Assembly (NCBI GenBank): GCA_035525875.1 | Contig: DATLDM010000103.1 | Span: 38,105 to 102,104, forward strand | DNA length: 64,000 nt | From: Aestuariivirga sp. | Lineage (GTDB): Bacteria; Pseudomonadota; Alphaproteobacteria; Rhizobiales; Aestuariivirgaceae | Direction of reading: 5' to 3' | Part shown: positions 34,774-46,197 of the stretch, one piece after another | Numbering within the stretch: position 1 is the stretch's first letter | Layout: every line of letters begins with the position of its first letter | Made by a program: the position numbers and the translations under genes | Notes under the pieces: model-generated | Databases searched by the model: none | What the model saw: the letters and a program-made list of their open reading frames with translations, nothing else | What the model was told of the DNA's origin: nothing

Positions 34774-35703
34774 CTAGCTTCCCTTCGCCATCATCGCCTC
34801 GATCTCGGCCCGCATCGGCATCGAGGGCGCGGTTCCTGCCTTGGTCACCGAGAGCGCCGCGCAGGCGCAGGCAAAGCGCATGGCGTCGACCGGTGCGCGC
34901 CCCTCGCCGATGGCCACCGCAAAGGCCCCGTTGAAGGCATCGCCCGCCCCCGTGGTTTCAACTACCTTCACCTTGTAACTGGGCACATGCACCGATTGCG
35001 TGGCGTTGTGCAGCAGCGCGCCGTTGGAGCCCAATGTGATGAGCGCGTTCCTGGCGCCAAGCTTCAGCAAGCCGTCGCCCGCCTTGCGCGCATCGTCAAC
35101 CGTGTTGACGGGAACCCCGGTGATCTCCGCCGCCTCGGTTTCATTGGGCGTCACATAATCGCAGAGCCCATAGATCGCCGTATCGATTTTTGCCGCGGGC
35201 GCCGGATTGAAGATCGTGGTCACGCCGTGTTTGCGCGCCAGTTCCAGCCCGCGCCGGCTGGCAGCCACCGCCGTTTCAAGCTGCGTGACCAAAACCTTTG
35301 CCCCTGAGATCGCTTTCTCCGCCAGGTTCACGTCATCTGCGGTGAGCGTGCCCGCCGCCCCCGCCTCGACGATGATGGCGTTGTCGCCCGTCTCGCTCGA
35401 TACGAAAATGAAGGCGGCCCCCGTCGGCACCGAATCCGAAATCATCACCTGCGAGGTGTCGATGCCGTCGGCGGCCCAGGTCTTGAGCGCGATATCGCCA
35501 AACGAGTCGCGGCCAAGCTTGGCGATGAAGCTCACATCGCCTCCCGCCCTTGCCGCCGCCACCGATTGGTTTGATCCCTTGCCGCCCGGCCCCATGGCAA
35601 AGCCCTGGCCCAGCAGCGTTTCGCCCATCACCGGCAGGCGCTTGGCCCGGAACGCGAGATCCGCCACGAAGATTCCGAGAATGGCAATGCGCGGTTTGCT
35701 CAT
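34774..35703 (-). CDS. rbsK: Ribokinase (PfkB family)
   Basis: GPGGKGSNQSVAAARAG, PTGAAFI, FNPAP, TPNETEA, DTTGAGD-like ETTGAGDAFNG; ATGA overlap with the upstream gene. Confidence 0.9.
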   Translation of the reverse strand: MSKPRIAILGIFVADLAFRAKRLPVMGETLLGQGFAMGPGGKGSNQSVAAARAGGDVSFIAKLGRDSFGDIALKTWAADGIDTSQVMISDSVPTGAAFIFVSSETGDNAIIVEAGAAGTLTADDVNLAEKAISGAKVLVTQLETAVAASRRGLELARKHGVTTIFNPAPAAKIDTAIYGLCDYVTPNETEAAEITGVPVNTVDDARKAGDGLLKLGARNALITLGSNGALLHNATQSVHVPSYKVKVVETTGAGDAFNGAFAVAIGEGRAPVDAMRFACACAALSVTKAGTAPSMPMRAEIEAMMAKGS

Positions 35704-36152
35704 GGCGCGTCCGGAGGGATGACGCCTTTCTTGAATACGAAGCAGCCATAAAAGCGCCGCTCCCCCGTCTGGATCACGCAATAGGCCTTCTTGGCTTTCT
35801 CATAGAATGCAAAGCGTTCGATGGAGCCCATGGGCCAGGATTTTCCCTCGGCCTTGTCGATCTCCACCTGCACTTCCGCCTGCACCGGCGGAACCTCATT
35901 GGGCTTGCCGACAATTTCCATGCGCTCTGCCGGCTTGTCGACAAAGCTGTCGAGCGGCATGACGGAAAGTACGGCACGCGCCACGCGGGCAGCGCTCGCG
36001 TCGATGCGCAGCAATTGGCCAAGCACCGTTTCGTGTGCCACCGAATCCGCCGGAAAATTGGTATCGCAAATGATGAGCTCATCGCCATGTCCCATGGATC
36101 GCAGCGCATAGAGAACATCGGCATTGAGAAGCGGATCAATTGATTTCAGCAA
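35700..36152 (-). CDS. RbsD/FucU family sugar mutarotase/pyranase
   Basis: MLKSIDPLL, MGHGDELIICDTNFPA, ERFAFYE, TGERRFYGC. Confidence 0.92.
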   Translation of the reverse strand: MLKSIDPLLNADVLYALRSMGHGDELIICDTNFPADSVAHETVLGQLLRIDASAARVARAVLSVMPLDSFVDKPAERMEIVGKPNEVPPVQAEVQVEIDKAEGKSWPMGSIERFAFYEKAKKAYCVIQTGERRFYGCFVFKKGVIPPDAP

Positions 36153-36194
36153 GATGTTCTCCCATGTTTGTTTTAGAGCATTTGAACCATAAAT

Positions 36195-36659
36195 TTACGG
36201 CAGGTCCAATCTTATTTCATCGATCAAAACTTCCTCGAGATTGGCGCCCGGCCCTCTCCGGTCCACAACCAGAAAGCGGCTATCGGCATCAAGTACCAGA
36301 AGCGGATGATGCCAGGCATTGCGGGCATAATTGATGCCCTGGCGGCCCGTGGCCGAAAAGGCGCGGAAGCTGGCGCGGTCCGTGGGATCCCCGCACACCA
36401 GAACCAGCCACGGCCGGTCCTGCAGCGGATAAAAAATCTGGCTGCCCAGCGGGTGCCGTTCCATCAGCGTGATCGCAATGGGCCGCGGCCGCGGGTTGGC
36501 AACGACGATGCTGATGTTGACCGCCTCGGCATCGACCGAGGCCAGATCATTGAAGCGCTCGGCGAACCCCTGATTGATCGGAAAATGCTGCGCACCATCA
36601 ATTTCAATGACCTCGCCGAACGGCGCGAAGCCCGCCTTGGTCAGCGCCTGGATTTTCAT
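36195..36659 (-). CDS. allA: Ureidoglycolate lyase
   Basis: LTKAGFAPFGEVI, MERHPLGSQ, QGINYARNAWHHPL, VVDRRGPGANLEE. Confidence 0.92.
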   Translation of the reverse strand: MKIQALTKAGFAPFGEVIEIDGAQHFPINQGFAERFNDLASVDAEAVNISIVVANPRPRPIAITLMERHPLGSQIFYPLQDRPWLVLVCGDPTDRASFRAFSATGRQGINYARNAWHHPLLVLDADSRFLVVDRRGPGANLEEVLIDEIRLDLP

Positions 36660-37483
36660 TTGCCGCCGAGCTTCATGTGGCGGTTCACGTCCTTGTAGAG
36701 CAGGTAGCGGAACGGCCCCGGCCCGCCCGCGTAGCAGGCCTGCGGGCAGAAAGCGCGCAGCCACATGTAGTCGCCCGCCTCCACCTCGACCCAGTCCTGG
36801 TTGAGCCGGTAAACCGCCTTGCCCTCCAGAATATAAAGCCCATGCTCCATCACATGGGTTTCGGCGAACGGGATGACGCCCCCCGGCTGGAAAGTGACGA
36901 TGGTCACATGCATGTCATGGCGCAGGTCGTCGAGGCTGACAAACCGCGTCGTCGCCCACACGCCATTGGTGTCCGGCATCGCAATGGGCGCGATATCCTT
37001 TTCATTCGCCACGAAGGCCTCGGGAACATCGAGCCCGTCCACAAAGTCATAAGCCTTGCGGATCCAATGGAACTTGACTGATTTCCCGCTCTTGTTCCGC
37101 ACGCTCCACTTCGCCCCCGGTGGAATATACGCATAACCGCCGGGCTGCATCACATGGACCTTGCCGGAAAGCGTCAGGCTCAACTCCCCTTCCACTACAA
37201 ACAGCACACATTCCGCCTTTGCATCGGGCTCCGGTTTATCACTGCCGCCGTCCGGCTTCACGTCCATGATGTATTGCGAAAATGTTTCGGCAAATCCCGA
37301 CAGGGGCCGCGACAGCACCCAGGCCCGCGTCTTCTCCCAAAAAGGAAAGTAGCTCACCGTGATATCGCGCAGCACGCCTTTGGGGATCACCGCATAGGCT
37401 TCCGTGAACACGGCGCGATCCGTGAGCAATGCGGCTTGCGGCGGCAATCCGCCCTGGGGTGCGTAATAGGTGCGGTTGGTCAT
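36656..37483 (-). CDS. allE: (S)-ureidoglycine aminohydrolase / bifunctional allantoicase (cupin)
   Basis: RAVFTEAYAVIP, SRPLSGFAETFSQY, ETHVMEHG, WLRAFCPQACYAGG, YLLYKDVNRH. Confidence 0.93.
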   Translation of the reverse strand: MTNRTYYAPQGGLPPQAALLTDRAVFTEAYAVIPKGVLRDITVSYFPFWEKTRAWVLSRPLSGFAETFSQYIMDVKPDGGSDKPEPDAKAECVLFVVEGELSLTLSGKVHVMQPGGYAYIPPGAKWSVRNKSGKSVKFHWIRKAYDFVDGLDVPEAFVANEKDIAPIAMPDTNGVWATTRFVSLDDLRHDMHVTIVTFQPGGVIPFAETHVMEHGLYILEGKAVYRLNQDWVEVEAGDYMWLRAFCPQACYAGGPGPFRYLLYKDVNRHMKLGGK

Positions 37484-37491
37484 GTCTTGTC

Positions 37492-38778
37492 CTATCCTAT
37501 GTACACGGCGCGGAAATCATTGACGTTGGTCAGCGTCGGCCCGGTGATGATCTGGTCGCCCAGCTTCTCAAAAAATCCATGCCCGTCATTATTGGCAAGC
37601 GAGGCCCAGGGATCAATCCCCAAAGCGCGGGCCCGCGAAAGCGTATCTGGCGTAATAAAAGCCCCCGCCACTTCGCGCGCCCCATCAACCCCGTCCGTAT
37701 CAGCCGCAAGCGCCATGATCTTCTCGGCCCCGTCAAGCTTGAGCGCCAGCGCCAGGAGAAATTCCACATTGCGCCCGCCAGCCCCGCTGCCCCGCACCGT
37801 CACCGTTGTCTCACCCCCCGAGATCAAAACGCAAGGTGCCGGCAAGGGTTGCCCGAAACGCCGCGATTGCAAGGCAATGCCCGCCATCACAAAGCCCACC
37901 TCGCGCGCCTCGCCTTCAATGGAATCGCCCAGAATAAGCGGTGTGATGCCAGCCTTGCGCGCGATGGCGGCCGCCGCCTCAAGCGATTTCTGCGGCGAGG
38001 CAATGAGTTTTGTTTCGACGCCTGCAAGCCGCGGATCACCGGGTTTCGGCGTTTCATCAACGGCCTGCTTGAGATGGCGGATGACAGCGGGCGGCGCATC
38101 GATATGATACTTTGCAATAATGGCGCGGGCCTGCGCGAATGTCGTGGGATCAGCCACCGTGGGGCCGGAGCCAACCGCGGCGAGATCATCACCCGGCACA
38201 TCGGAAATCACCAGGCTCACCACCCGCGCCGGATGCGCTGCCGCCGCAAGCCTGCCGCCCTTGATGGCCGAGAGATGCTTGCGCACGCAATTCATTTCCG
38301 AAATCGGCGCGCCACTCTTAAGCAGCGCCCGGTTGACGGCGCGCTTTTCCTCCACCGAAATCCCTTCCGCCGGAAGGCTGAGCAGTGCCGAACCGCCGCC
38401 GGAAATAAGTGCAATGACGAGATCATCCTTGGTGAGCCCCTTCACCATGGCCAGCATCCGCCGCGCCCCGTTGGTGCCCGCATCATCGGGAACCGGATGG
38501 GCCGCTTCAACAATTTCAATCTGTTTGCAGGGAACGGCATGGCCATAGCGCGTGACGATCAGGCCCGAGAGCGGGCCGTTCCAGGATTTTTCAAGCACCT
38601 GCGCCATGGCCGCCGAAGCCTTGCCCGTGCCGACAACAATCGTTCGGCCCTTCGGTTTTGCCGGCAGGTTCTGCGGCACGCATTGATCCGGCATCGCCGC
38701 CGCCACTGCGGCGTCAAACATGGTCCGCAGCAATTTGCGCGTGGCATCTGGTGCCATGGCATCAACGCTCTTGGTCAC
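37492..38778 (-). CDS. Glycerate 2-kinase (MOFRL/TtuD family)
   Basis: VVGTGKASAAMA, AAHPVPD, ISGGGSAL, RKHLSAIKGG, GGETTV, GGRNVEF, TLTNVNDFR. Confidence 0.93.
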   Translation of the reverse strand: MTKSVDAMAPDATRKLLRTMFDAAVAAAMPDQCVPQNLPAKPKGRTIVVGTGKASAAMAQVLEKSWNGPLSGLIVTRYGHAVPCKQIEIVEAAHPVPDDAGTNGARRMLAMVKGLTKDDLVIALISGGGSALLSLPAEGISVEEKRAVNRALLKSGAPISEMNCVRKHLSAIKGGRLAAAAHPARVVSLVISDVPGDDLAAVGSGPTVADPTTFAQARAIIAKYHIDAPPAVIRHLKQAVDETPKPGDPRLAGVETKLIASPQKSLEAAAAIARKAGITPLILGDSIEGEAREVGFVMAGIALQSRRFGQPLPAPCVLISGGETTVTVRGSGAGGRNVEFLLALALKLDGAEKIMALAADTDGVDGAREVAGAFITPDTLSRARALGIDPWASLANNDGHGFFEKLGDQIITGPTLTNVNDFRAVYIG

Positions 38779-39554
38779 GAATTCATCAACTTCATCCAGC
38801 CCAGGCCTTCAACTGTCGTGCCCTTCGGCTTGTACTCGCAGCCAACCCAGCCGCCATAACCCAGTGAATCAATCAGCTTGAAGATATAGGGATAGTTGAT
38901 CTCGCCCGTGCCTGGTTCATGCCGCCCCGGATTGTCGGCAATCTGGATATGGCCGATGCGCGGCATGAGTTTTTTCAGCGTTGCCCCAAGCTCACCCTCC
39001 ATGCGCTGCATGTGATAAACATCATACTGGAATTTGAGATTGTCGGAGCCCACGTCATCCATGATTTCAACCGCCTCTTTCGAACGGTTTAGGAAAAATC
39101 CCGGAATGTCATGGAAGTTGATGGCCTCGGCGATGAGCAGGATGTTTTCTTTTTTGAAGGCCTTGGCCGCGAAGGCAAGGTTGGAAACCAGTGTGGTGTA
39201 GCCGGTGCGCCGCGACACATCGCTGGGCAGAATGCCCGCCAGGCAATTCACCGTGGGGCAGCCCAGCGCCTTGGCATAATCAATGGCCGTGCCGACACTG
39301 TCCTGAAACTCGCCCACCCTGTCCGGCAGGCAGCCAAGGCCGCGCTCGCCCGGCTCCCAGTTTCCCGCCGGAAGGTTGAACAGAACCTGCTTCAAATTGT
39401 TCTTCTGCAGAAGCTCAGCCACCTGCTCCTTGGGATAGGCATAGGGCCCCACATACTCCACTGCGGCAAAGCCCGCCTTTGCCGCCGCCGGAAAGCGCTC
39501 GAGGAAATCATGCTCGGGAAACAGCATGGAAAGATTGGCGCTGAATTTTGGCAT
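38775..39554 (-). CDS. hyi: Hydroxypyruvate isomerase
   Basis: MPKFSANLSMLF, LFNLPAGNW, EAINFHDIPG, DVYHMQ, HIQIADNPGRHEPGTGEINY, GCEY. Confidence 0.93.
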   Translation of the reverse strand: MPKFSANLSMLFPEHDFLERFPAAAKAGFAAVEYVGPYAYPKEQVAELLQKNNLKQVLFNLPAGNWEPGERGLGCLPDRVGEFQDSVGTAIDYAKALGCPTVNCLAGILPSDVSRRTGYTTLVSNLAFAAKAFKKENILLIAEAINFHDIPGFFLNRSKEAVEIMDDVGSDNLKFQYDVYHMQRMEGELGATLKKLMPRIGHIQIADNPGRHEPGTGEINYPYIFKLIDSLGYGGWVGCEYKPKGTTVEGLGWMKLMNS

Positions 39555-39646
39555 CAGGAAATCTCCGAAGTCGAATGGTGCAGGTGCGCCCGAAAAAGCC
39601 CTGACATCATCGATATAGCTTCCAAGGCAACACCTGTCGATTCCCC

Positions 39647-39729
39647 CTAAACCGGGAAGGTCCTATGCCAATGCCGGGCGATATCAACGCGCCGGGCGAT
39701 CCAGACCTTGTCATGGGATTGCACATAAT
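39647..39729 (-). pseudogene. Displaced puuE 3' end (attR-like remnant)
   Basis: Minus-strand translation YVQSHDKVWIARRVDIARHWHRTFPV* parallels the current puuE end YVQSHDKVWIARRIDIARHWYENFPG*. Confidence 0.85.
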
Positions 39730-39900
39730 AGTGCCACCAGCTTCAGATACCTTAGTTCCAGCCGACAGTCGGCCTTCATACCCTCATGCGCAACGACGCA
39801 ACAGCACTGGCCCGCCGCTTCGTCGAGTTCCCAAGGCGTTAAGATTCTTGACTGAATCGCGTAGGCACCCCTTTCTCTGCCAAAATCGCCAAATCGGGCA

Positions 39901-39936
39901 TTGCAAATACTGTAGCCTATGAGCTACAATAGCTCA
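39901..39936 (+). promoter_or_regulatory. Island promoter with overlapping palindromic operators
   Basis: TTGCAA (39901-39906) - N18 - TACAAT (39925-39930); TGTAGC-N6-GCTACA at 39911-39928 and TGAGCTA-N3-TAGCTCA at 39920-39936. Confidence 0.6.
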
Positions 39937-39944
39937 CACAGCAA

Positions 39945-40542
39945 GTGGATTTAATTGTGATCAAACTCAATCCTCAGAAAATCGAAGGAAGATGGAAATC
40001 CGGCATTGCTTTGGACTTTCATACGACCAGCAGTACACCAATTGGCTACAATGAATTCGGGCACATGCAATTTGATACTGTAAGGCCCGAAATTGCTGAA
40101 CTACTTTATCAGCTCAAATCTCGGCAGAATCTAGCAGTGGCGCCACAAATCATTGAGGCGGCTGCAGCATTCCTCAGTACACCGATCAAAGTTTGACCTA
40201 ATAGTACCGGTACCGCCCTCGGCTGCGCGCGCAATTCAACCCGTTCTTGTCTTAGCAAATGGCATTGGCGCAGCGATCAGCGTGCCTGTCGTCAATTGTG
40301 TCACCACCACGCGAGCAACCGCACAGCTAAAGAACATAACCGAACCTGAAAAAAGAAAAGAACTAGTTGAGGGGCTCTACGTAATTGATGCCAGTAAAAC
40401 CGTTGGCAAAAGGATTCTGCTATTCGATGACCTATTTAGGTCGGGCACAACTATGAACGAGATTACAGACGTGTTACTGGCTCAAGGTCAAACGACCAGC
40501 GTAAGCGCTCTCACAATAACAAAGACAAGGAGCAACAAATGA
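39945..40542 (+). pseudogene. ComF-like phosphoribosyltransferase, split by a frameshift near 40170-40196
   Basis: ORF 39945-40196 (IALDFHT...ELLYQLK) continues in the +1 frame as KFDLIVPVPPS...QLK...ILLFDDLFRSGTT (PRPP-binding loop)...TKTRS. Confidence 0.85.
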
Positions 40543-41408
40543 ACACCGTTTTTATAGGCGGTTCACGAAATATTTCGCGATTAACCGCTCAGGTCAGGGA
40601 ACGTTTGAATACTGTTATTGAGAAAGGTCATCAAGTCATCGTCGGAGACGCTAACGGTGCCGACAAGGCAGTACAAAAACTTTTGATGGAAGCCGCCTAC
40701 GACAAAGTGACTGTTTTCTGCTCTGGGAACCATCCTAGAAACAATATTGGTCACTGGAATACTCGAAATGTTACGCCACCAAAAGGTGTTCGAGGGTTTG
40801 AGTTTTATGCAGCCAAAGACCGCGAGATGGCAAGAGAGGCCGATTTTGGACTAATGATTTGGGATAGCAAAAGTGCAGGTACAGTTTTAAATGTTTTGCG
40901 TTTGGTACGTAGGGGCAAGATTGCCGTCCTCATAAATGTACCCGATAAGTCAACTACTACAGTCAAGACGGAAACAAACTGGCAAGATTTTTTGGCAAAA
41001 TGTAGTCCATCGCTGAGAGCCGATATTAAGGAGCGAGCAACGAAGGACGAATGGAAATTTTTGACTGCCGACATGCAAGCAAACTTGTTTGAAACTCATG
41101 ATCTATCAATCTTGGGTACAAATAAAGACCCGTCAACTAGCTCACCAGAAGAAGAATTAGCAGTCGAAATAAATGCAGCACTGGATTCAGGGGACTCTGG
41201 CTCATTTGTCGATGCGCTTGGCAACATAGCACGCGCACGTGGCATGACCCAAGTCGCAAAGGAAACCGGTTTAGCGCGTGAAAGTTTGTACCGCTCATTA
41301 GGTAGCGGGGGCAATCCAGAATTCGCTACAGTGCTTAAGATCCTGGCTGCCTTGGGGCTACGACTAGAAGCGCGAAAGACGCGCGAAAGTCGATCCGCAA
41401 AACTCTGA
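40539..41408 (+). CDS. SLOG (YspA/DprA-like) domain fused to a C-terminal HI1420-like addiction-antidote HTH
   Basis: N-terminus VFIGGSR...IVGDANGADKAVQ...KDREMAREADFGLMIWDSKSAGT; C-terminus ALGNIARARGMTQVAKETGLARESLYRSLGSGGNPEFATVLKILAALGLRL; ATGA-type overlap with the PRTase stop. Confidence 0.8.
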   Translation: MNTVFIGGSRNISRLTAQVRERLNTVIEKGHQVIVGDANGADKAVQKLLMEAAYDKVTVFCSGNHPRNNIGHWNTRNVTPPKGVRGFEFYAAKDREMAREADFGLMIWDSKSAGTVLNVLRLVRRGKIAVLINVPDKSTTTVKTETNWQDFLAKCSPSLRADIKERATKDEWKFLTADMQANLFETHDLSILGTNKDPSTSSPEEELAVEINAALDSGDSGSFVDALGNIARARGMTQVAKETGLARESLYRSLGSGGNPEFATVLKILAALGLRLEARKTRESRSAKL

Positions 41409-41452
41409 AATGAATCCAAAATTGCGGAATCTCGGCTTTAAGCAAGCTTCCG

Positions 41453-42346
41453 CTAGCCGGGAAAATTCTCGTACCAATGCCGGGCGATATCAATGCGCCG
41501 GGCGATCCAGACCTTGTCATGGGATTGCACATAATCGAGGAATTTCGCCAGCCCCTGTGCGCGGCCGGGGCGGCCGGCAAGGCGGCAATGCAGCCCTATC
41601 GACATCATTTTTGGCGAGCCGCGCTTTCCTTCCTCATACAGGCAATCGAAGGAGTCCTTCAGATACTGGTAGAAATGCTCGCCCGTATTGAAGCCCTGCG
41701 GCATGGCAAAGCGCATGTCATTGGCATCCAACGTATAGGGAATGACCAGATGCTTCTCCACCCAATAGGGCAGCTCATCCGCATAGGAATCCGATGAATA
41801 AAGAAAGCCGCCCTCATGCCTGATAAGGCGCTGGGTGTTCATCGAGCAGCGCCCCGTGTACCAGCCCAGCGGGCGCTCGCCGGTCACCTCCTTATGGATG
41901 CGGATGGCATCCTGGATGTGCCGCCACTCTTCGTCTTCCGGCATATCCTTGTAGTCAATCCACTTGAGGCCATGGCTGGCAACTTCCCAGCCCGCCTCGA
42001 TCATGGCGCGCGTCTGCTCCGGCGAGCGCTGCAGGGCGGTGGCCACGCCATAAATCGTCAGCGGAATCTTGCGCCCCGTGAACAGGCGCCACAGCCGCCA
42101 GAAACCAGCCCGCGCCCCATATTCATAAACCGATTCCATGTTCCAGTTGCGCTGCCCCGGCCAGGCAACCGCCCCGACGGTTTCAGAGAGAAAAGCTTCC
42201 GAGGCCGCATCGCCATGGAGAATGTTGTTCTCGCCGCCCTCTTCGTAGTTCAGCACGAACTGCACGGCTATGCGCGCTCCGTCCGGCCATTTCGGGTCCG
42301 GAATGGCTAAGGCGTAGCCCTTCAGGTCACGCGGATAATCGGTCAT
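41453..42346 (-). CDS. puuE: Allantoinase PuuE (polysaccharide deacetylase fold)
   Basis: YPRDLKGY, QFVLNYEEGGEN, ESVYEYGARAGFWR, WEVASHGLKW, YTLDANDMRF, GLHCRLAGRPGR. Confidence 0.96.
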   Translation of the reverse strand: MTDYPRDLKGYALAIPDPKWPDGARIAVQFVLNYEEGGENNILHGDAASEAFLSETVGAVAWPGQRNWNMESVYEYGARAGFWRLWRLFTGRKIPLTIYGVATALQRSPEQTRAMIEAGWEVASHGLKWIDYKDMPEDEEWRHIQDAIRIHKEVTGERPLGWYTGRCSMNTQRLIRHEGGFLYSSDSYADELPYWVEKHLVIPYTLDANDMRFAMPQGFNTGEHFYQYLKDSFDCLYEEGKRGSPKMMSIGLHCRLAGRPGRAQGLAKFLDYVQSHDKVWIARRIDIARHWYENFPG

Positions 42347-43619
42347 GAACTTTTTCTCCCGCCACATAGGTAGCACGAATGGCCCTGTCATCGCCCAGTA
42401 TCATCAGGGCGAACAGCATGTCCTCCAGCGATTGCGACAGCTCCTGCCGCGCCGCCAGAACCGGCGTCGCCCGCTGGTCCAGCACCACGATATCCGCGTA
42501 TTTGCCCGTCTCCAGCGCCCCGATTTCATGATCAAGCCGCAGGCGCTCCGCATTGCCACGCGTGGCCATCCGGAAGAGTTCCAGCGCCGCTGGCTTGTAG
42601 CCCGTGAGCATCTGAACCTTGTAGGCCTCGCCAAGGGTTGCCAGCATGGAATACGTGGTGCCGCCGCCCACATCGGTTGCCAGCGCAACGGGAACGGGCC
42701 GTTCCTTCTTGCCCAAATGCTTCATCGCCATCAACCCGGAACCCAGAAAATTATTCGACGTGGGGCAATGGGCGATGGTCGCCCCCGCCTCATGCAGCCG
42801 CTGGCATTCGTTCTCCGACAAATGAACTCCATGGGCAAATATGCCGTGATCATTCACCAGTCCGAAGCGCTCGTACACCGCTGTGTAATCCCGGTCATTA
42901 GGAAACAGCGACTTGATCCAGGCAATTTCGCCCGGGCTTTCCGAAAGATGCGTCTGCATCAGGGCATCGGGATAGGATTTGAGAAGCTCGCCAGAAACCT
43001 TTAACTGCGCCTCGGTTGAGGTAATCGCAAAGCGCGGCGAAATGGCATAGCGCAAACGCCCGTTGCCATGCCACGTTTGATAAAGCGCCTCGGAATCCTT
43101 GGCCCCGGTTGTCGCATCATCATGCACTGCCGGCAACGCATTGCGGTCCATCATCGTCTTGCCGGTCACCAGCGCCATCCCGCGCAACTGCGCTTCGCCA
43201 AACAACGCATCGGCACAGGTCTTGTGGACCGAGCAGAAGGCCATGGCTGCCGTCGTGCCATTTGCAAACAGGCTTTGCAAGAAAGTCTTGGCATTCACCC
43301 TGGCGTAGTCGGCATCGGCATAGCGCGCCTCTTCCGGAAAGGTAAAGCGGGTCAGCCAGTCCAACAAATCCTTGCCTGGGGCCGCGAGCATGCGAAGCTG
43401 GGGGAAATGAATATGCGCGTCAATGAAACCCGCCATGACGATATTGTCGCCATAATCATCCGTTGCAAGGCCCTGGAAATTTCGCGGCAGCAGCGTGAGC
43501 GGCCCGCTCCACAAAATTGTTCCGTCATCGCCAATGACAACTCCGCCTTTGCTTTCATGGGTGACCTCATGATGCGTCTTGCCGAAATTCAGGGTTTGCC
43601 CGCGAACAAGTTTTGTCAT
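42327..43619 (-). CDS. guaD: Guanine deaminase
   Basis: GFIDAHIHFPQ, LLDWLTRFTFPEE, YAISPRFA, QTHLSES, HCPTSNNFLGSG, ATDVGGG. Confidence 0.95.
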   Translation of the reverse strand: MTKLVRGQTLNFGKTHHEVTHESKGGVVIGDDGTILWSGPLTLLPRNFQGLATDDYGDNIVMAGFIDAHIHFPQLRMLAAPGKDLLDWLTRFTFPEEARYADADYARVNAKTFLQSLFANGTTAAMAFCSVHKTCADALFGEAQLRGMALVTGKTMMDRNALPAVHDDATTGAKDSEALYQTWHGNGRLRYAISPRFAITSTEAQLKVSGELLKSYPDALMQTHLSESPGEIAWIKSLFPNDRDYTAVYERFGLVNDHGIFAHGVHLSENECQRLHEAGATIAHCPTSNNFLGSGLMAMKHLGKKERPVPVALATDVGGGTTYSMLATLGEAYKVQMLTGYKPAALELFRMATRGNAERLRLDHEIGALETGKYADIVVLDQRATPVLAARQELSQSLEDMLFALMILGDDRAIRATYVAGEKVHDRLSA

Positions 43620-44113
43620 GGGGCGACGCGGTCCTCGATGCGGAAGCGGAAGATGCGGCACACCTGGTCCAGCGCCATGGCGAACTCGTCCTCCTTGGAA
43701 TGATTCACCCGCTCGGCGAAACTCGAGAGGATTTGCTGCTTGGTGGCCCCCTTCACCGCAAAGATAAAGGGAAAATCAAACTTGGATTTATAAAGCTCGT
43801 TGAGATGGGTGAAGCGCGCAAACTCTTCGGCAGTCAGCGCGCCCAAACCCGCTTGCGCCTGCTCATGGGCAGAATCATCGGTAAGCTTTGCCTTGCTCGC
43901 CAGATCGGGATGCGCCCGGATCAAGGCCAACTGCGCCGTTTCCGATGCGGAATGAACCGCCTCGTGAAAAGCCCTGATCATGGATTCCCGCGACACAAAG
44001 GGCCTGTCGCCCGCTGCATTGCGCGCCACCCAGGGCGAATGCTCCGCCACATCGCCAAAGGTTTTTTCAAATTCCGTGGAACTTAGCGCGTTCACCTGCT
44101 GAATTGTTTTCAT
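43616..44113 (-). CDS. uraD: OHCU decarboxylase
   Basis: FGDVAEHSPWVA, LIRAHPDLA, EQAQAGL, YKSKFDFPFIFAVKG, RIFRFRI; ATGA overlap with the puuD stop. Confidence 0.93.
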   Translation of the reverse strand: MKTIQQVNALSSTEFEKTFGDVAEHSPWVARNAAGDRPFVSRESMIRAFHEAVHSASETAQLALIRAHPDLASKAKLTDDSAHEQAQAGLGALTAEEFARFTHLNELYKSKFDFPFIFAVKGATKQQILSSFAERVNHSKEDEFAMALDQVCRIFRFRIEDRVAP

Positions 44114-46188
44114 TGCGTGTTTATCCATGCCCCCAGCTTCGCCCGTTCTTCGGCCATCATGCCCGTCTTGTTGCCAAGCGGCATGGCCTTGTTCTTCACC
44201 GCCTGCATTTCAATCTGCTGCGCATAGCGCTTCAATTCGTCCAGTGTTTCCAGCGCAATTCCCTTCGGCGCCGTCTTGATCGTGGCATCGCTTGGCGTTT
44301 GCGCATGGCAGGAAGTGCAGCGCGTCTTGACGATTATCAGCGCCTCTTCATCCCCGACGGTGCCGGAATAAGTTGGAGTTGCCGCCGGTTCCGTGAACCA
44401 CAGGGCCGCGGCCAGCGCCCCGCTGATGATCGGAATGGTCCAGGCAATTTGCGCAATTGGGTCACCCACTTCAAGGCGGACAAGAAAGTGGCGCAGCGCC
44501 GCACCGCCGACAACAATCAGGCCAACCAATATCCATGCATGCATATGCTCGGTGATCATCGGATAGTGGTTGCTGATCATCATCAGGAGAACCGGCAGCG
44601 TGAGATAGGTGTTGTGCAGCGAGCGCTGCTTGCCCGTGATGCCAAAGCTTGGATCGGGGGCTTCGCCGCGCAGCAGCGCCTGGGTGGTTTTCTTCTGGTT
44701 CGGAATGATCACCATGAAAACATTGGCCGCCATGATCGTGCCGATGAAGGAACCTACATGGATCAGCGCCCCGCGCCCCGAAAACACCTGGGTAAAGCCA
44801 TAGGCCGCAGCGAGGATAAGCAGGGCCACGCAGAAGGCGAGAAGCTCCGGCTTCCGCACGAGGGCCGAGCGGCACATCAGGTCATAGATGATCCAGCCCG
44901 CGACAAGGCTTGCAACGGATATACCGATGGCCTGCCATGGCGTAAGCACCAGCACATCCTGGGAAATCAGATAGGTACTGGCATTGAGATAATACTGCAC
45001 GATGAGCAGCAGGAAACCCGTGGCCCAGGTGAGATAAGCCTCCCATTTGAACCAGATGAGATCACCGGGCAGCTGGGCCGGAGCCACCAGATATTTCTGC
45101 ACATTGTAAAAGCCACCGCCGTGAACTTCCCAGGCTTCTCCCGAAACACCGGCTGGCAGGCCTTCCCGCTTGCGCAGGGAAAAATCCAGCGCCACAAAAT
45201 AGAAGCTCGTGCCGATCCAGGCGATGCCGGCAATCATGTGGCCCCAGCGCAGCAGCAGGTTCCACCAGTCTTCATCGAGCGGACCGGCACCCGTCAGCCA
45301 GAAGGCGAGGCCCAACGCCAGAAATATGACCGGGAGGGTCCAGGCAATTTTGTTCAACGGATCGCCTACTTCATGGCGCACCAGGAAATGCCGCAGCGCC
45401 ACCCCGCCCACAATGATGAGCCCTGCAAGAAGCCACGCCTGCGGATGATCGGTGAGCATCGCATAATGGTTTGAAACCATCATCACCAGCACCGGCAGGG
45501 TCAGATAGGTATTATGCAAGGAGCGTTGCTTGCCGGTTGCGCCAAAGGCGGGATCGGGCGTTTCGCCGCGGATCAGCGCCACGGTAATCTTGCGCTGGTT
45601 GGGAATGATCACCGCGAACACATTGGCCGCCATCAAGGTGCCGATGAATATGCCGATATGGATGAAAGCCCCGCGGCCGGAATAGACTTGGGTGTAGCCA
45701 TAGGAGGCTGCCATGATCAGTACGAAAACCAGGCCAGCCAAGAGCTGCGGTTGAGACACCGCAAACCGGCGGCACAGAAAATCATAGGCGATCCAGCCCG
45801 CCGCAAGGCTGCCCAGCGAGATCGAAATCGCCTGCCAAGGCAGCAGGGATAACACAGCCGGATCAATCAGATAGGACCCAGCGTTAACGTAATACTGTAA
45901 GCAGAGAAGCAGAAATCCCGTGACCCAGGTGAGATACGCTTCCCACTTGAACCAGATCAGGTCTTCGGGGAGTTTGGGCGGCGCGCTCAGGTATTTGCGG
46001 ACGTTATAAAAGCCGCCGCCGTGAATTTCCCACGCCTCGCCCGAAACGCCTTCCGGCAGGCCCGCCGGTTTCTTCAAGGAAAAGTCCAGCGCCACGAAAT
46101 AGAACGACGTGCCAATCCACGCGATGCCGGCAATCATGTGCCCCCAGCGAGCAAGCAAATTCAGCCATTCTATTACAAACGGATCCAT
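44110..46188 (-). CDS. puuD: Urate hydroxylase/oxidase PuuD with a tandemly duplicated membrane (DUF989) domain and one C-terminal cytochrome c
   Basis: RWGHMIAGIAWIGTSFYFVALDFSL, WFKWEAYLTW, GKQRSLHNTYLTLPVL and SNHY each occur twice, 300 aa apart; a single CTSCH heme motif; lies within the purine cluster. Confidence 0.9.
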   Translation of the reverse strand: MDPFVIEWLNLLARWGHMIAGIAWIGTSFYFVALDFSLKKPAGLPEGVSGEAWEIHGGGFYNVRKYLSAPPKLPEDLIWFKWEAYLTWVTGFLLLCLQYYVNAGSYLIDPAVLSLLPWQAISISLGSLAAGWIAYDFLCRRFAVSQPQLLAGLVFVLIMAASYGYTQVYSGRGAFIHIGIFIGTLMAANVFAVIIPNQRKITVALIRGETPDPAFGATGKQRSLHNTYLTLPVLVMMVSNHYAMLTDHPQAWLLAGLIIVGGVALRHFLVRHEVGDPLNKIAWTLPVIFLALGLAFWLTGAGPLDEDWWNLLLRWGHMIAGIAWIGTSFYFVALDFSLRKREGLPAGVSGEAWEVHGGGFYNVQKYLVAPAQLPGDLIWFKWEAYLTWATGFLLLIVQYYLNASTYLISQDVLVLTPWQAIGISVASLVAGWIIYDLMCRSALVRKPELLAFCVALLILAAAYGFTQVFSGRGALIHVGSFIGTIMAANVFMVIIPNQKKTTQALLRGEAPDPSFGITGKQRSLHNTYLTLPVLLMMISNHYPMITEHMHAWILVGLIVVGGAALRHFLVRLEVGDPIAQIAWTIPIISGALAAALWFTEPAATPTYSGTVGDEEALIIVKTRCTSCHAQTPSDATIKTAPKGIALETLDELKRYAQQIEMQAVKNKAMPLGNKTGMMAEERAKLGAWINTQ
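44392..46188 (-). repeat. Intragenic tandem duplication, 900-bp unit (boundaries approximate)
   Basis: The TGG-GGN codons of RWG are at 46146-46141 and 45246-45241; copies differ at synonymous positions. Confidence 0.9.
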
Positions 46189-46197
46189 CAAGGCTCC

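Follow-up and report, generated by a model that had tools for sequence, protein, structure and literature searches.

The window analysed here, a stretch of 64,000 nucleotides (nt) of Aestuariivirga sp. DNA (contig DATLDM010000103.1), carries at positions 39,901 to 41,408 a promoter region followed by two overlapping plus-strand genes. The upstream gene encodes a phosphoribosyltransferase (PRTase) with a loop for phosphoribosyl pyrophosphate (PRPP), and its downstream partner encodes a SLOG domain joined to a helix-turn-helix (HTH) domain. We consider the locus likely to be a decayed copy of a widespread, autoregulated module composed of a PRTase toxin and a SLOG antidote, and the module is probably of the abortive-infection type. 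The original prediction for this DNA had described the pair as the sole cargo of an island, and the PRTase and its partner are indeed the only genes of a 1.7-kb islet between two repeat copies. The sequence features it had named (PVPPS, the PRTase loop, GGSR and the motifs that follow it, the HTH and the gene overlap) were all recovered where it had placed them. The features of the locus are as follows.

39644..39729, no strand: left direct-repeat copy (attL-like), a displaced puuE 3' end that ends on the minus strand with DKVWIARRVDIARHWHRTFPV and a stop
39730..41449, no strand: islet body of 1720 nt, with the promoter/operator and two genes only
39901..39930, plus strand: sigma-70-like promoter from a consensus scan, with -35 TTGCAA (39901-39906), an 18-nt spacer and -10 TACAAT (39925-39930)
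39911..39928, no strand: putative operator palindrome TGTAGCC-TATG-AGCTACA (TGTAGCCTATGAGCTACA), spanning the spacer and the -10
39945..40542, plus strand: PRTase ("toxin") pseudogene, with a GTG start, a 2-nt deletion after 40178 and an otherwise intact PRPP loop, LLFDDLFRSGTT
40539..40964, plus strand: SLOG (Rossmannoid) domain, partner residues 1-142, with a pLDDT >90 in an AlphaFold2 (AF2) model and the motifs GGSR, GDANGADK, RNN, KDR and WDxKSxGT
40971..41090, plus strand: helical module, residues 145-184 (W..FL..CS..LR.D...RAT..EW), common to the long and short forms of the partner (alignment A1 and the tails of short-form open reading frames, ORFs)
41145..41408, plus strand: HigA-type HTH (dnstrm_HI1420) with the C-terminal tail to the stop, residues 203-289
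41450..41535, no strand: right direct-repeat copy (attR-like), the present puuE 3' end (minus-strand ORF 41453-42391)

The PRTase is split over two ORFs, 39945-40196 and 40153-40542, which together encode a type I enzyme of about 199 aa with both PVPPS and LLFDDLFRSGTT at the predicted positions. It matched the Pfam model Pribosyltran (7e-5) and the NCBIfam ComF model (1e-9, far under the cut-off of that model) as well as the PADLOC models for PsyrT (7e-17, over the C-terminal PRTase part of the model only) and ShosT (2.6e-5). Intact homologous PRTases gave values of 1e-15 to 1e-18 with PsyrT and of 1e-6 to 1e-9 with ShosT, and PRTases of the family matched the PsyrT model only at positions of about 540-687 of 689. 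At E<=1e-3 the family comprised 632 proteins of 195-197 aa (195-199 across tests) and single-domain, which NCBI annotates as 'ComF family protein' or as amidophosphoribosyltransferase-like. Residues D173, D174, R177, S178, G179 and T181 were invariant in alignment A2 together with PVPPS, and the enzyme features of the PRTase are under selection. One homologue was modelled with AF2 (pLDDT 86), and a Foldseek search with this model retrieved the PurF PRTase domain, H. pylori ComF and ShosT (8zvd/8zvc), and H. pylori ComF (7p0h) had the top query-normalised TM-score (0.55) among the matches listed.

Alignment with intact homologues located the break in the window PRTase between FLS and HRSKFD. 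A sister islet (L090, 91% identical) reads AGT TCA CAC where the window reads AGT--ACAC and contains an intact ORF of 199 aa, and a soil-metagenome contig (X2) equals the window over 40057-40205 except for a 'TC' inserted behind 40178. By these comparisons the window PRTase appears to be a very recent pseudogene created by a 2-nt deletion, or possibly the product of an assembly error. Programmed frameshifting within the PRTase was considered as well and rejected, because the frameshifts of other loci vary in position and alleles almost identical to this one keep the reading frame.

The partner gene (40539-41408) encodes 289 aa, and its start overlaps the PRTase stop by 4 nt (ATGA). In its AF2 model (overall pLDDT 82.5), the helical module is followed by a disordered linker at residues 176-202 and the HTH occupies residues 203-271. 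This HTH matched PF21716 (2e-24, 85.7 bits against a cut-off of 27, residues 204-278) and TIGR02684 (2.9e-27, 94.7 bits against a cut-off of 53.7), with a weak PDB sequence match to HigA (6af3), and databases label the partner 'addiction module antidote protein'. For the N-terminal domain, the top Foldseek match in the PDB was ShosA (8zva, E 5.6e-5), followed by DprA (4ljk, 5mll, 3maj), the SLOG domains of TRPM2/4/5/8, the LOG-like YvdD (1t35) and the SLOG domain of ThsA (7uxs). Its sequence reached 17.1 bits with the DprA model PF02481, which is below the gathering threshold of 29.6. Among 150 SLOG relatives, 8 gave weak DprA and 5 gave weak YAcAr (YspA, PF10686) Pfam matches, and other SLOG models gave none. 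Judged by its predicted fold, the N-domain is a SLOG domain of a family without a Pfam model of its own. The label 'YspA-like' is thus a fair one given the weak YAcAr matches in relatives, and 'non-DprA SLOG' is right for the sequence family and wrong for the fold, where the nearest solved structures are those of ShosA and DprA.

Used as query in a library-wide phmmer search, the N-domain retrieved 1616 clusters at 50% identity, mostly of stand-alone proteins of about 185 aa. In other relatives the domain is fused to antitoxin-type tails (dnstrm_HI1420, HTH_37, YhfG), to abortive-infection domains (Abi_alpha, HEPN_AbiU2) or to domains that process ADP-ribose or nucleotides (NADAR, DUF4326, DUF488-N3a); fusions of the latter two kinds are found in P0255, P0258, P0357, P0387 and P0388. 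This pattern suggests that several conflict systems share the SLOG domain as a versatile sensor or antidote. Among about 150 representatives at <=50% identity, the polar residues D37, D42, Q46, R67, N68, N69, K93, D94, D109 and S112 were nearly invariant. The stretch equivalent to the LOG motif reads WD(S/G)KSxGTxxN in the partner family, with an invariant N118 where a Glu is expected, and we take N118 to correspond to the catalytic Glu of the LOG motif PGGxGTxxE.

In a collection with one genome per species, the full-length partner was confirmed in 510 stretches, from Alpha-, Beta- and Gammaproteobacteria, Acidobacteriota, Binatia, Myxococcota, Verrucomicrobiota, Planctomycetota and other groups; the family is widespread in soil and plant-associated Proteobacteria, Acidobacteriota, Binatia and other phyla, and its distribution across many phyla is patchy. 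Most of 80 genome loci have the PRTase directly upstream of the partner, again overlapping by 4 nt. A set of 80 loci from metagenomes was anchored on the PRTase, and the partner lies directly downstream wherever the contig allows. The same pair with its overlap recurs in most of 160 independent loci. Insertion sites vary from locus to locus. A shorter partner without the HTH (about 170-210 aa) was found in about 40% of the PRTase-anchored loci, and the PRTases beside these short partners belong to the same family (hhalign probability 100%). The predicted SLOG-HTH fusion is therefore real in the window and characteristic of one branch of the family only. One apparent PRTase-SLOG fusion protein (P0271) was rejected as such, as it is a frameshifted PRTase read through into the partner. 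Two loci (L116:3052-5390 and L117:1694-4032) carry the module in tandem, with a PRTase and a fragmented partner followed by a more divergent PRTase and an intact short partner.

The two genes decay unequally. Of the 74 loci anchored on an intact partner, 52 retain a whole PRTase, 6 have a frameshifted one, 12 a truncated one and 4 none; PRTase degradation affects about 27% of these loci, and the frameshifts sit at different positions. Conversely, 56 of 57 loci with an intact PRTase retained an intact partner SLOG domain (35 with the HTH and 21 short). The asymmetry was significant (Fisher p=5e-5 with 20 degraded PRTases, two borderline truncations being set aside; 1e-5 with all 22), and the window and P0271 are further cases of PRTase decay. 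That the toxin can vanish alone and the antidote cannot is the polarity expected of a toxin and its antitoxin. At the level of sequence comparison, the decay pattern supports the toxin/antitoxin polarity that had been proposed for the pair.

Upstream of the PRTase start, the family shares an 18-bp palindrome, TGTARCC-N4-GGYTACA, and the consensus of 83 unique upstream sites is CCTTGCCCATC-TGTAGCC-CATA-GGTTACA-nT. The promoter geometry in these 83 unique upstream regions is conserved too: 17 nt separate a TTGCCC -35 from a TACAnT -10, and the -10 falls within the right arm of the palindrome. When up to 2 mismatches were allowed (<=2), the palindrome was present in 76 of 83 loci with an HTH partner against 3 of 24 with an HTH-less partner (Fisher p=1.9e-13). 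The HTH-class loci without it include L045, L046, L053, L055 and L064, in which the HTH is degenerate or diverged. An operator that covers both the spacer and the -10 and co-varies with the HTH constitutes strong comparative evidence that the partner represses its own transcription through this putative site, consistent with the 'built-in autorepressor' of the original prediction. At window 39921-39937, a second palindrome, TGAGCTA-CAA-TAGCTCA, shares positions with the -10 and with the operator's right arm. L090 has it with one arm mismatch, and it falls outside the family consensus.

The neighbourhoods of the pair contain defence genes and mobile elements, as had been anticipated, including cyclic-oligonucleotide-based anti-phage signalling systems (CBASS), Gabija, restriction-modification (RM) and toxin-antitoxin (TA) genes, plasmids and an integrative and conjugative element (ICE). 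A Xanthomonas citri locus is flanked by the XcyI RM system, a resolvase, AAA_13, PIN and Zeta toxins and remnants of an integrated plasmid. A Sphingomonas locus lies within an ICE with relaxase, coupling protein and integrase, and on a Brucella anthropi plasmid the pair adjoins a CBASS operon, ImmA/IrrE and VapC. Among 150 neighbour ORFs of 18 loci, strong PADLOC matches were obtained for GajB, PifA, type I RM, SoFic, AbiLi, RmrA and mad2, together with CBASS parts (cyclases with TIR, 2TM, HORMA, TRIP13 and SAVED). Full-length copies reside on 14 plasmids. The phage collection of cultured phages gave HTH-only matches and no full-length copy, and of 7 short-form loci from IMG/VR, 4 have the PRTase. 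This context suits a module for defence or addiction. A short-form SLOG gene of 178 aa that stands alone, with no PRTase upstream, was also observed on the conjugative Mesorhizobium plasmid NZ_AP023244.1 (L173:5001-5537), where its neighbours are a RES-Xre TA pair and a DUF2493 gene; this solo gene may be either an orphan antidote or an anti-defence gene, and similar solo copies occur on other Mesorhizobium and Aminobacter plasmids.

The islet itself bears the marks of an insertion. A repeat search found its 86-nt direct repeat (86% identical), whose copies agree at 74 of 86 positions overall and at 62 of 66 in the inner part, and a composition scan gave 47% GC for the islet against 58-60% for its flanks. 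The left repeat copy is an alternative, displaced puuE 3' end adjoining hyi (38775-39554), and the same islet, about 91% identical, occupies the same hyi|puuE site in L090 and L091. An integrase, a tRNA and an Rfam family were not found in the islet by inspection of the ORF list, a tRNA scan and an Rfam scan, and a search of plasmids for an empty hyi|puuE site gave distant puuE matches only. The segment 39644-41535 is a small foreign islet, and the window as a whole derives from a soil metagenome.

How does the pair compare with known systems? ShosTA and PsyrTA each combine a PRTase toxin with a DprA-like antitoxin and are validated anti-phage systems (bioRxiv 10.1101/2022.05.11.491447; PMC11961720; PMC12961424). 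The DD pair of the PRPP loop is required for the toxicity of ShosT, which bound PRPP and none of the purines tested (PMC11961720). ShosA neutralises ShosT without binding it (PMC11961720), through ssDNA binding and contact with RecA (PMC12961424). Like ShosTA of E. coli APEC O1, the present pair consists of two genes, one for a PRTase whose PRPP loop has the acidic DD pair and one for a partner of DprA-like SLOG fold, and both systems are located in defence islands. However, ShosT is a protein of 424 aa with an N-terminal pyrophosphatase-like hydrolase domain, whereas the PRTase here has about 197 aa and a small N-terminal beta-meander. ShosA combines a SAM domain with a large nine-stranded DprA domain and has no HTH, in contrast to the present partner, which combines a SLOG domain of about 140 aa with a helical module and a HigA-type HTH and has no SAM domain in its AF2 model. 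With PsyrTA (RqlHI) the pair shares the match of its PRTase to the PsyrT model and the DprA-like character of the PsyrTA antitoxin, but PsyrT carries a large RecQ-like helicase region in front of its C-terminal PRTase and the present PRTase lacks it. A type II antitoxin HTH with its operator is an addition of the present pair and occurs in neither system. Filing the pair as ShosTA or PsyrTA was rejected, because ShosA and PsyrA were not matched and the defining domains of both systems are missing. PADLOC v2 (2023), the one defence-annotation database tested, did not call it. The relation to ShosTA and PsyrTA that had been predicted is nonetheless upheld by the PsyrT and ShosT model matches of the PRTase and by ShosA as the top structure for its partner.

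Other comparisons concern parts of the pair. As in the HI1419/HI1420 (HigBA-like) type II TA, the C-terminal 75 residues of the partner form a dnstrm_HI1420 HTH and a palindrome lies inside its own promoter; unlike in that system, no RelE/HigB-type toxin is present, a PRTase gene stands upstream both in the window and in related loci, and the HTH is placed behind a SLOG domain. The PRTase shares the PVPPS and DD-loop motifs with ComFC/ComF, yet it scored 38.7 bits with TIGR00201 against a cut-off of 233.55, has no N-terminal zinc finger (residues 1-80 are without Cys) and is not found in a competence gene context. The fusions to NADAR and DUF4326 resemble the ADP-ribose and nucleotide-processing contexts of YAcAr SLOG domains (PMC7824862). 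The Aravind group mentions in passing that YpsA-clade SLOG genes are strictly paired with PRTase genes (PMC6459960), and the present pair shares with such YpsA/YspA-clade pairs the conflict contexts and a GxD signature, here G40-A-D42. An HTH fusion or an operator is not mentioned there, and the published PRTase-linked branch may or may not be the present family; YpsA (2NX2) was outside the top 50 Foldseek matches of the partner. The literature search found no publication on the PRTase + SLOG-HTH architecture, so that its description as new holds for this particular arrangement and not for the general pairing of a PRTase with a YpsA-like SLOG, already noted in PMC6459960.

These observations are best explained by the following model. 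In an intact module, both genes would be transcribed from one sigma-70 promoter and coupled in translation via the ATGA overlap. The single-domain, ComF-like type I PRTase would use PRPP and inhibit growth as ShosT and PsyrT do, and the partner would neutralise it via the N-terminal SLOG domain. The HigA-type HTH would bind TGTARCC-N4-GGYTACA over the spacer and the -10, so that the operon is repressed. Loss or turnover of the partner would then free the PRTase and derepress the operon, with shut-off of host expression by a phage as a possible trigger, and the disordered linker between SLOG and HTH may serve as a proteolytic cleavage site that separates the two parts. The coupling of nucleotide or PRPP sensing to autoregulation, which the original prediction proposed, would be a conjectural addition to this model. 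In the window, what is left after inactivation of the PRTase would be an intact, self-repressed orphan antidote on an integrase-less 1.7-kb islet.

The means of neutralisation admits several alternatives. In a classical type II arrangement, the partner would bind and block the PRTase, and the toxin-antitoxin complex would tune repression at the operator by conditional cooperativity. The membership of the HTH in the HigA/HI1420 antitoxin family, the 4-nt overlap coupling translation, the location of the operator inside the promoter and a disordered linker typical of labile antitoxins all agree with this. HTH-less partners in 21 of 57 loci do not, since their frequency means that the HTH is dispensable for the core function, and ShosT and ShosA, the only characterised relatives, do not interact (PMC11961720). 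We regard this arrangement as possible rather than probable.

A different mode would be that of an enzyme and an anti-enzyme, as in DarTG. The PRTase would phosphoribosylate a nucleobase, either free or in DNA or RNA, the SLOG domain would act as a hydrolase or glycosidase that removes the adduct, and the HTH would only set expression. This is a sub-variant of the toxin-antidote reading that differs from it in the mode of neutralisation. The polar residues of the SLOG domain are nearly invariant across stand-alone, NADAR-, DUF4326-, DUF488- and Abi-fused forms, and a polar constellation kept across fusions suggests a ligand or catalytic pocket rather than an interface specific to the PRTase. 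On the other hand, the LOG catalytic Glu is replaced by the invariant N118, and no acceptor is known for any TA-type PRTase. SLOG enzymes of the LOG clade cleave base-ribose-5'-phosphate bonds (PMC9503650), the kind of bond that PRTases form, and the NADAR and DUF4326 fusions match YAcAr contexts (PMC7824862); the nearest structures, ShosA and DprA, are nevertheless non-catalytic DNA binders, and ShosT bound PRPP but no tested purine (PMC11961720). Taken together, such a cycle appears unlikely.

More doubtful still is a type IV mode of the ShosA kind, in which the SLOG domain would bind ssDNA or recruit RecA and so repair replication damage arising from a purine metabolism disturbed by the PRTase. 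ShosA and DprA are the best structural matches, and ShosA needs both ssDNA binding and RecA contact (PMC12961424), but at about 140 residues the domain has neither the SAM domain nor the extended nine-stranded sheet seen in ShosA (PMC11961720), and it has no significant match to DprA or ShosA sequence models. A non-conflict role, either as a housekeeping or regulatory pair in nucleotide salvage or, in the window, as a functionless dead remnant, is very improbable: the frameshifted PRTase, the position of the islet inside a purine-catabolism cluster, which could hint at a metabolic link, and database annotation as ComF-family or amidophosphoribosyltransferase-like only would suit it, but it is at odds with the patchy phyletic spread, the low-GC, repeat-bounded islet with variable insertion sites, the plasmid, ICE and defence-gene neighbourhoods, the antitoxin-type HTH and the toxin-like decay, and the intact partner ORF, promoter and operator mean that the remnant is not wholly dead.

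Several points weigh against the reading of the locus as a copy of a PRTase toxin and SLOG antidote module. With its PRTase a pseudogene, the window copy is in no state to work in defence, and a check of its 2-nt deletion in about half of the source run X1 gave no contig over the islet. The link between the partner and ShosA is by fold only, with 17% identity over about 147 columns and a TM of about 0.37 across the whole model. Searches of the PDB with profiles A1 and A3 gave no significant sequence match for the partner SLOG, only the weak HigA match and chance matches. Full-length partners had no match to the PADLOC ShosA model at E<=0.1 and no significant match to the PsyrA model, which was unmatched by the window partner, P0022 and P0079 and reached at best 0.02 in a distant short-form relative. 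Because ShosA acts without binding ShosT, the analogy is silent on how a much smaller SLOG domain would neutralise its PRTase. The decay comparison spans two collections, genomes and metagenomes, with different anchor motifs, the census of defence contexts is an 18-locus sample without a matched background, and the literature search found no published experiment on the family.

Islets with this pair as single cargo recur: besides 39644-41535 of the window, they were seen at L012:2084-3994 and L062:5201-6673 and in L030, L052 and L100. These tiny islets are of lower GC and without a recombinase, with 1.4-1.8 kb between repeats that are 55-86 nt long and made of host sequence. For both the window and L012, what is repeated is a host gene's 3' end, with a different gene in each. 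The islets look like cis-mobilisable, att-bounded elements. A soil-run contig (X3) joins window position 41552 to 39762 through the repeat and thus returns to the left part of the islet ('goes back 1791'); this junction could reflect an excised circle, two copies in tandem or faulty assembly across the repeat. One compound conjecture, argued by analogy and with only a slim chance of being right as a whole, is that the pair moves as a minimal recombinase-less cassette of about 1.4-1.8 kb that duplicates 55-86 nt of a host-gene 3' end, and that the SLOG domain would at the same time recognise or destroy the phosphoribosylated product of the PRTase in a reversible, DarT/DarG-like cycle to which the HTH would make transcription respond.

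The islet lies within a cluster for purine and ureide catabolism (window 35700-46191). By resemblance of their translations, we take the genes of this cluster to include ureidoglycolate lyase-like and ureidoglycine aminohydrolase-like genes, glycerate kinase, hydroxypyruvate isomerase, puuE, guanine deaminase and OHCU decarboxylase. Judged in the same way, the gene at 44110-46191 on the minus strand encodes a 693-aa membrane protein whose sequence is internally duplicated and carries a C-terminal CxxCH motif. That the islet's insertion site put a PRPP-using gene beside purine genes is probably coincidental.

Represented in ShosTA, PsyrTA and some retrons, PRTase toxins have only recently been recognised as a class of effectors, and what serves as their acceptor substrate is not yet known. 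The present family is a stripped-down version, with a lone PRTase domain and a SLOG domain of about 140 aa. Its small size should make it a tractable model for what a TA-type PRTase modifies and how a SLOG domain counteracts it, and the conserved operator offers a readily testable regulatory circuit. Adding the family to PADLOC or DefenseFinder would annotate hundreds of loci that are now labelled 'ComF family protein / addiction module antidote protein'.

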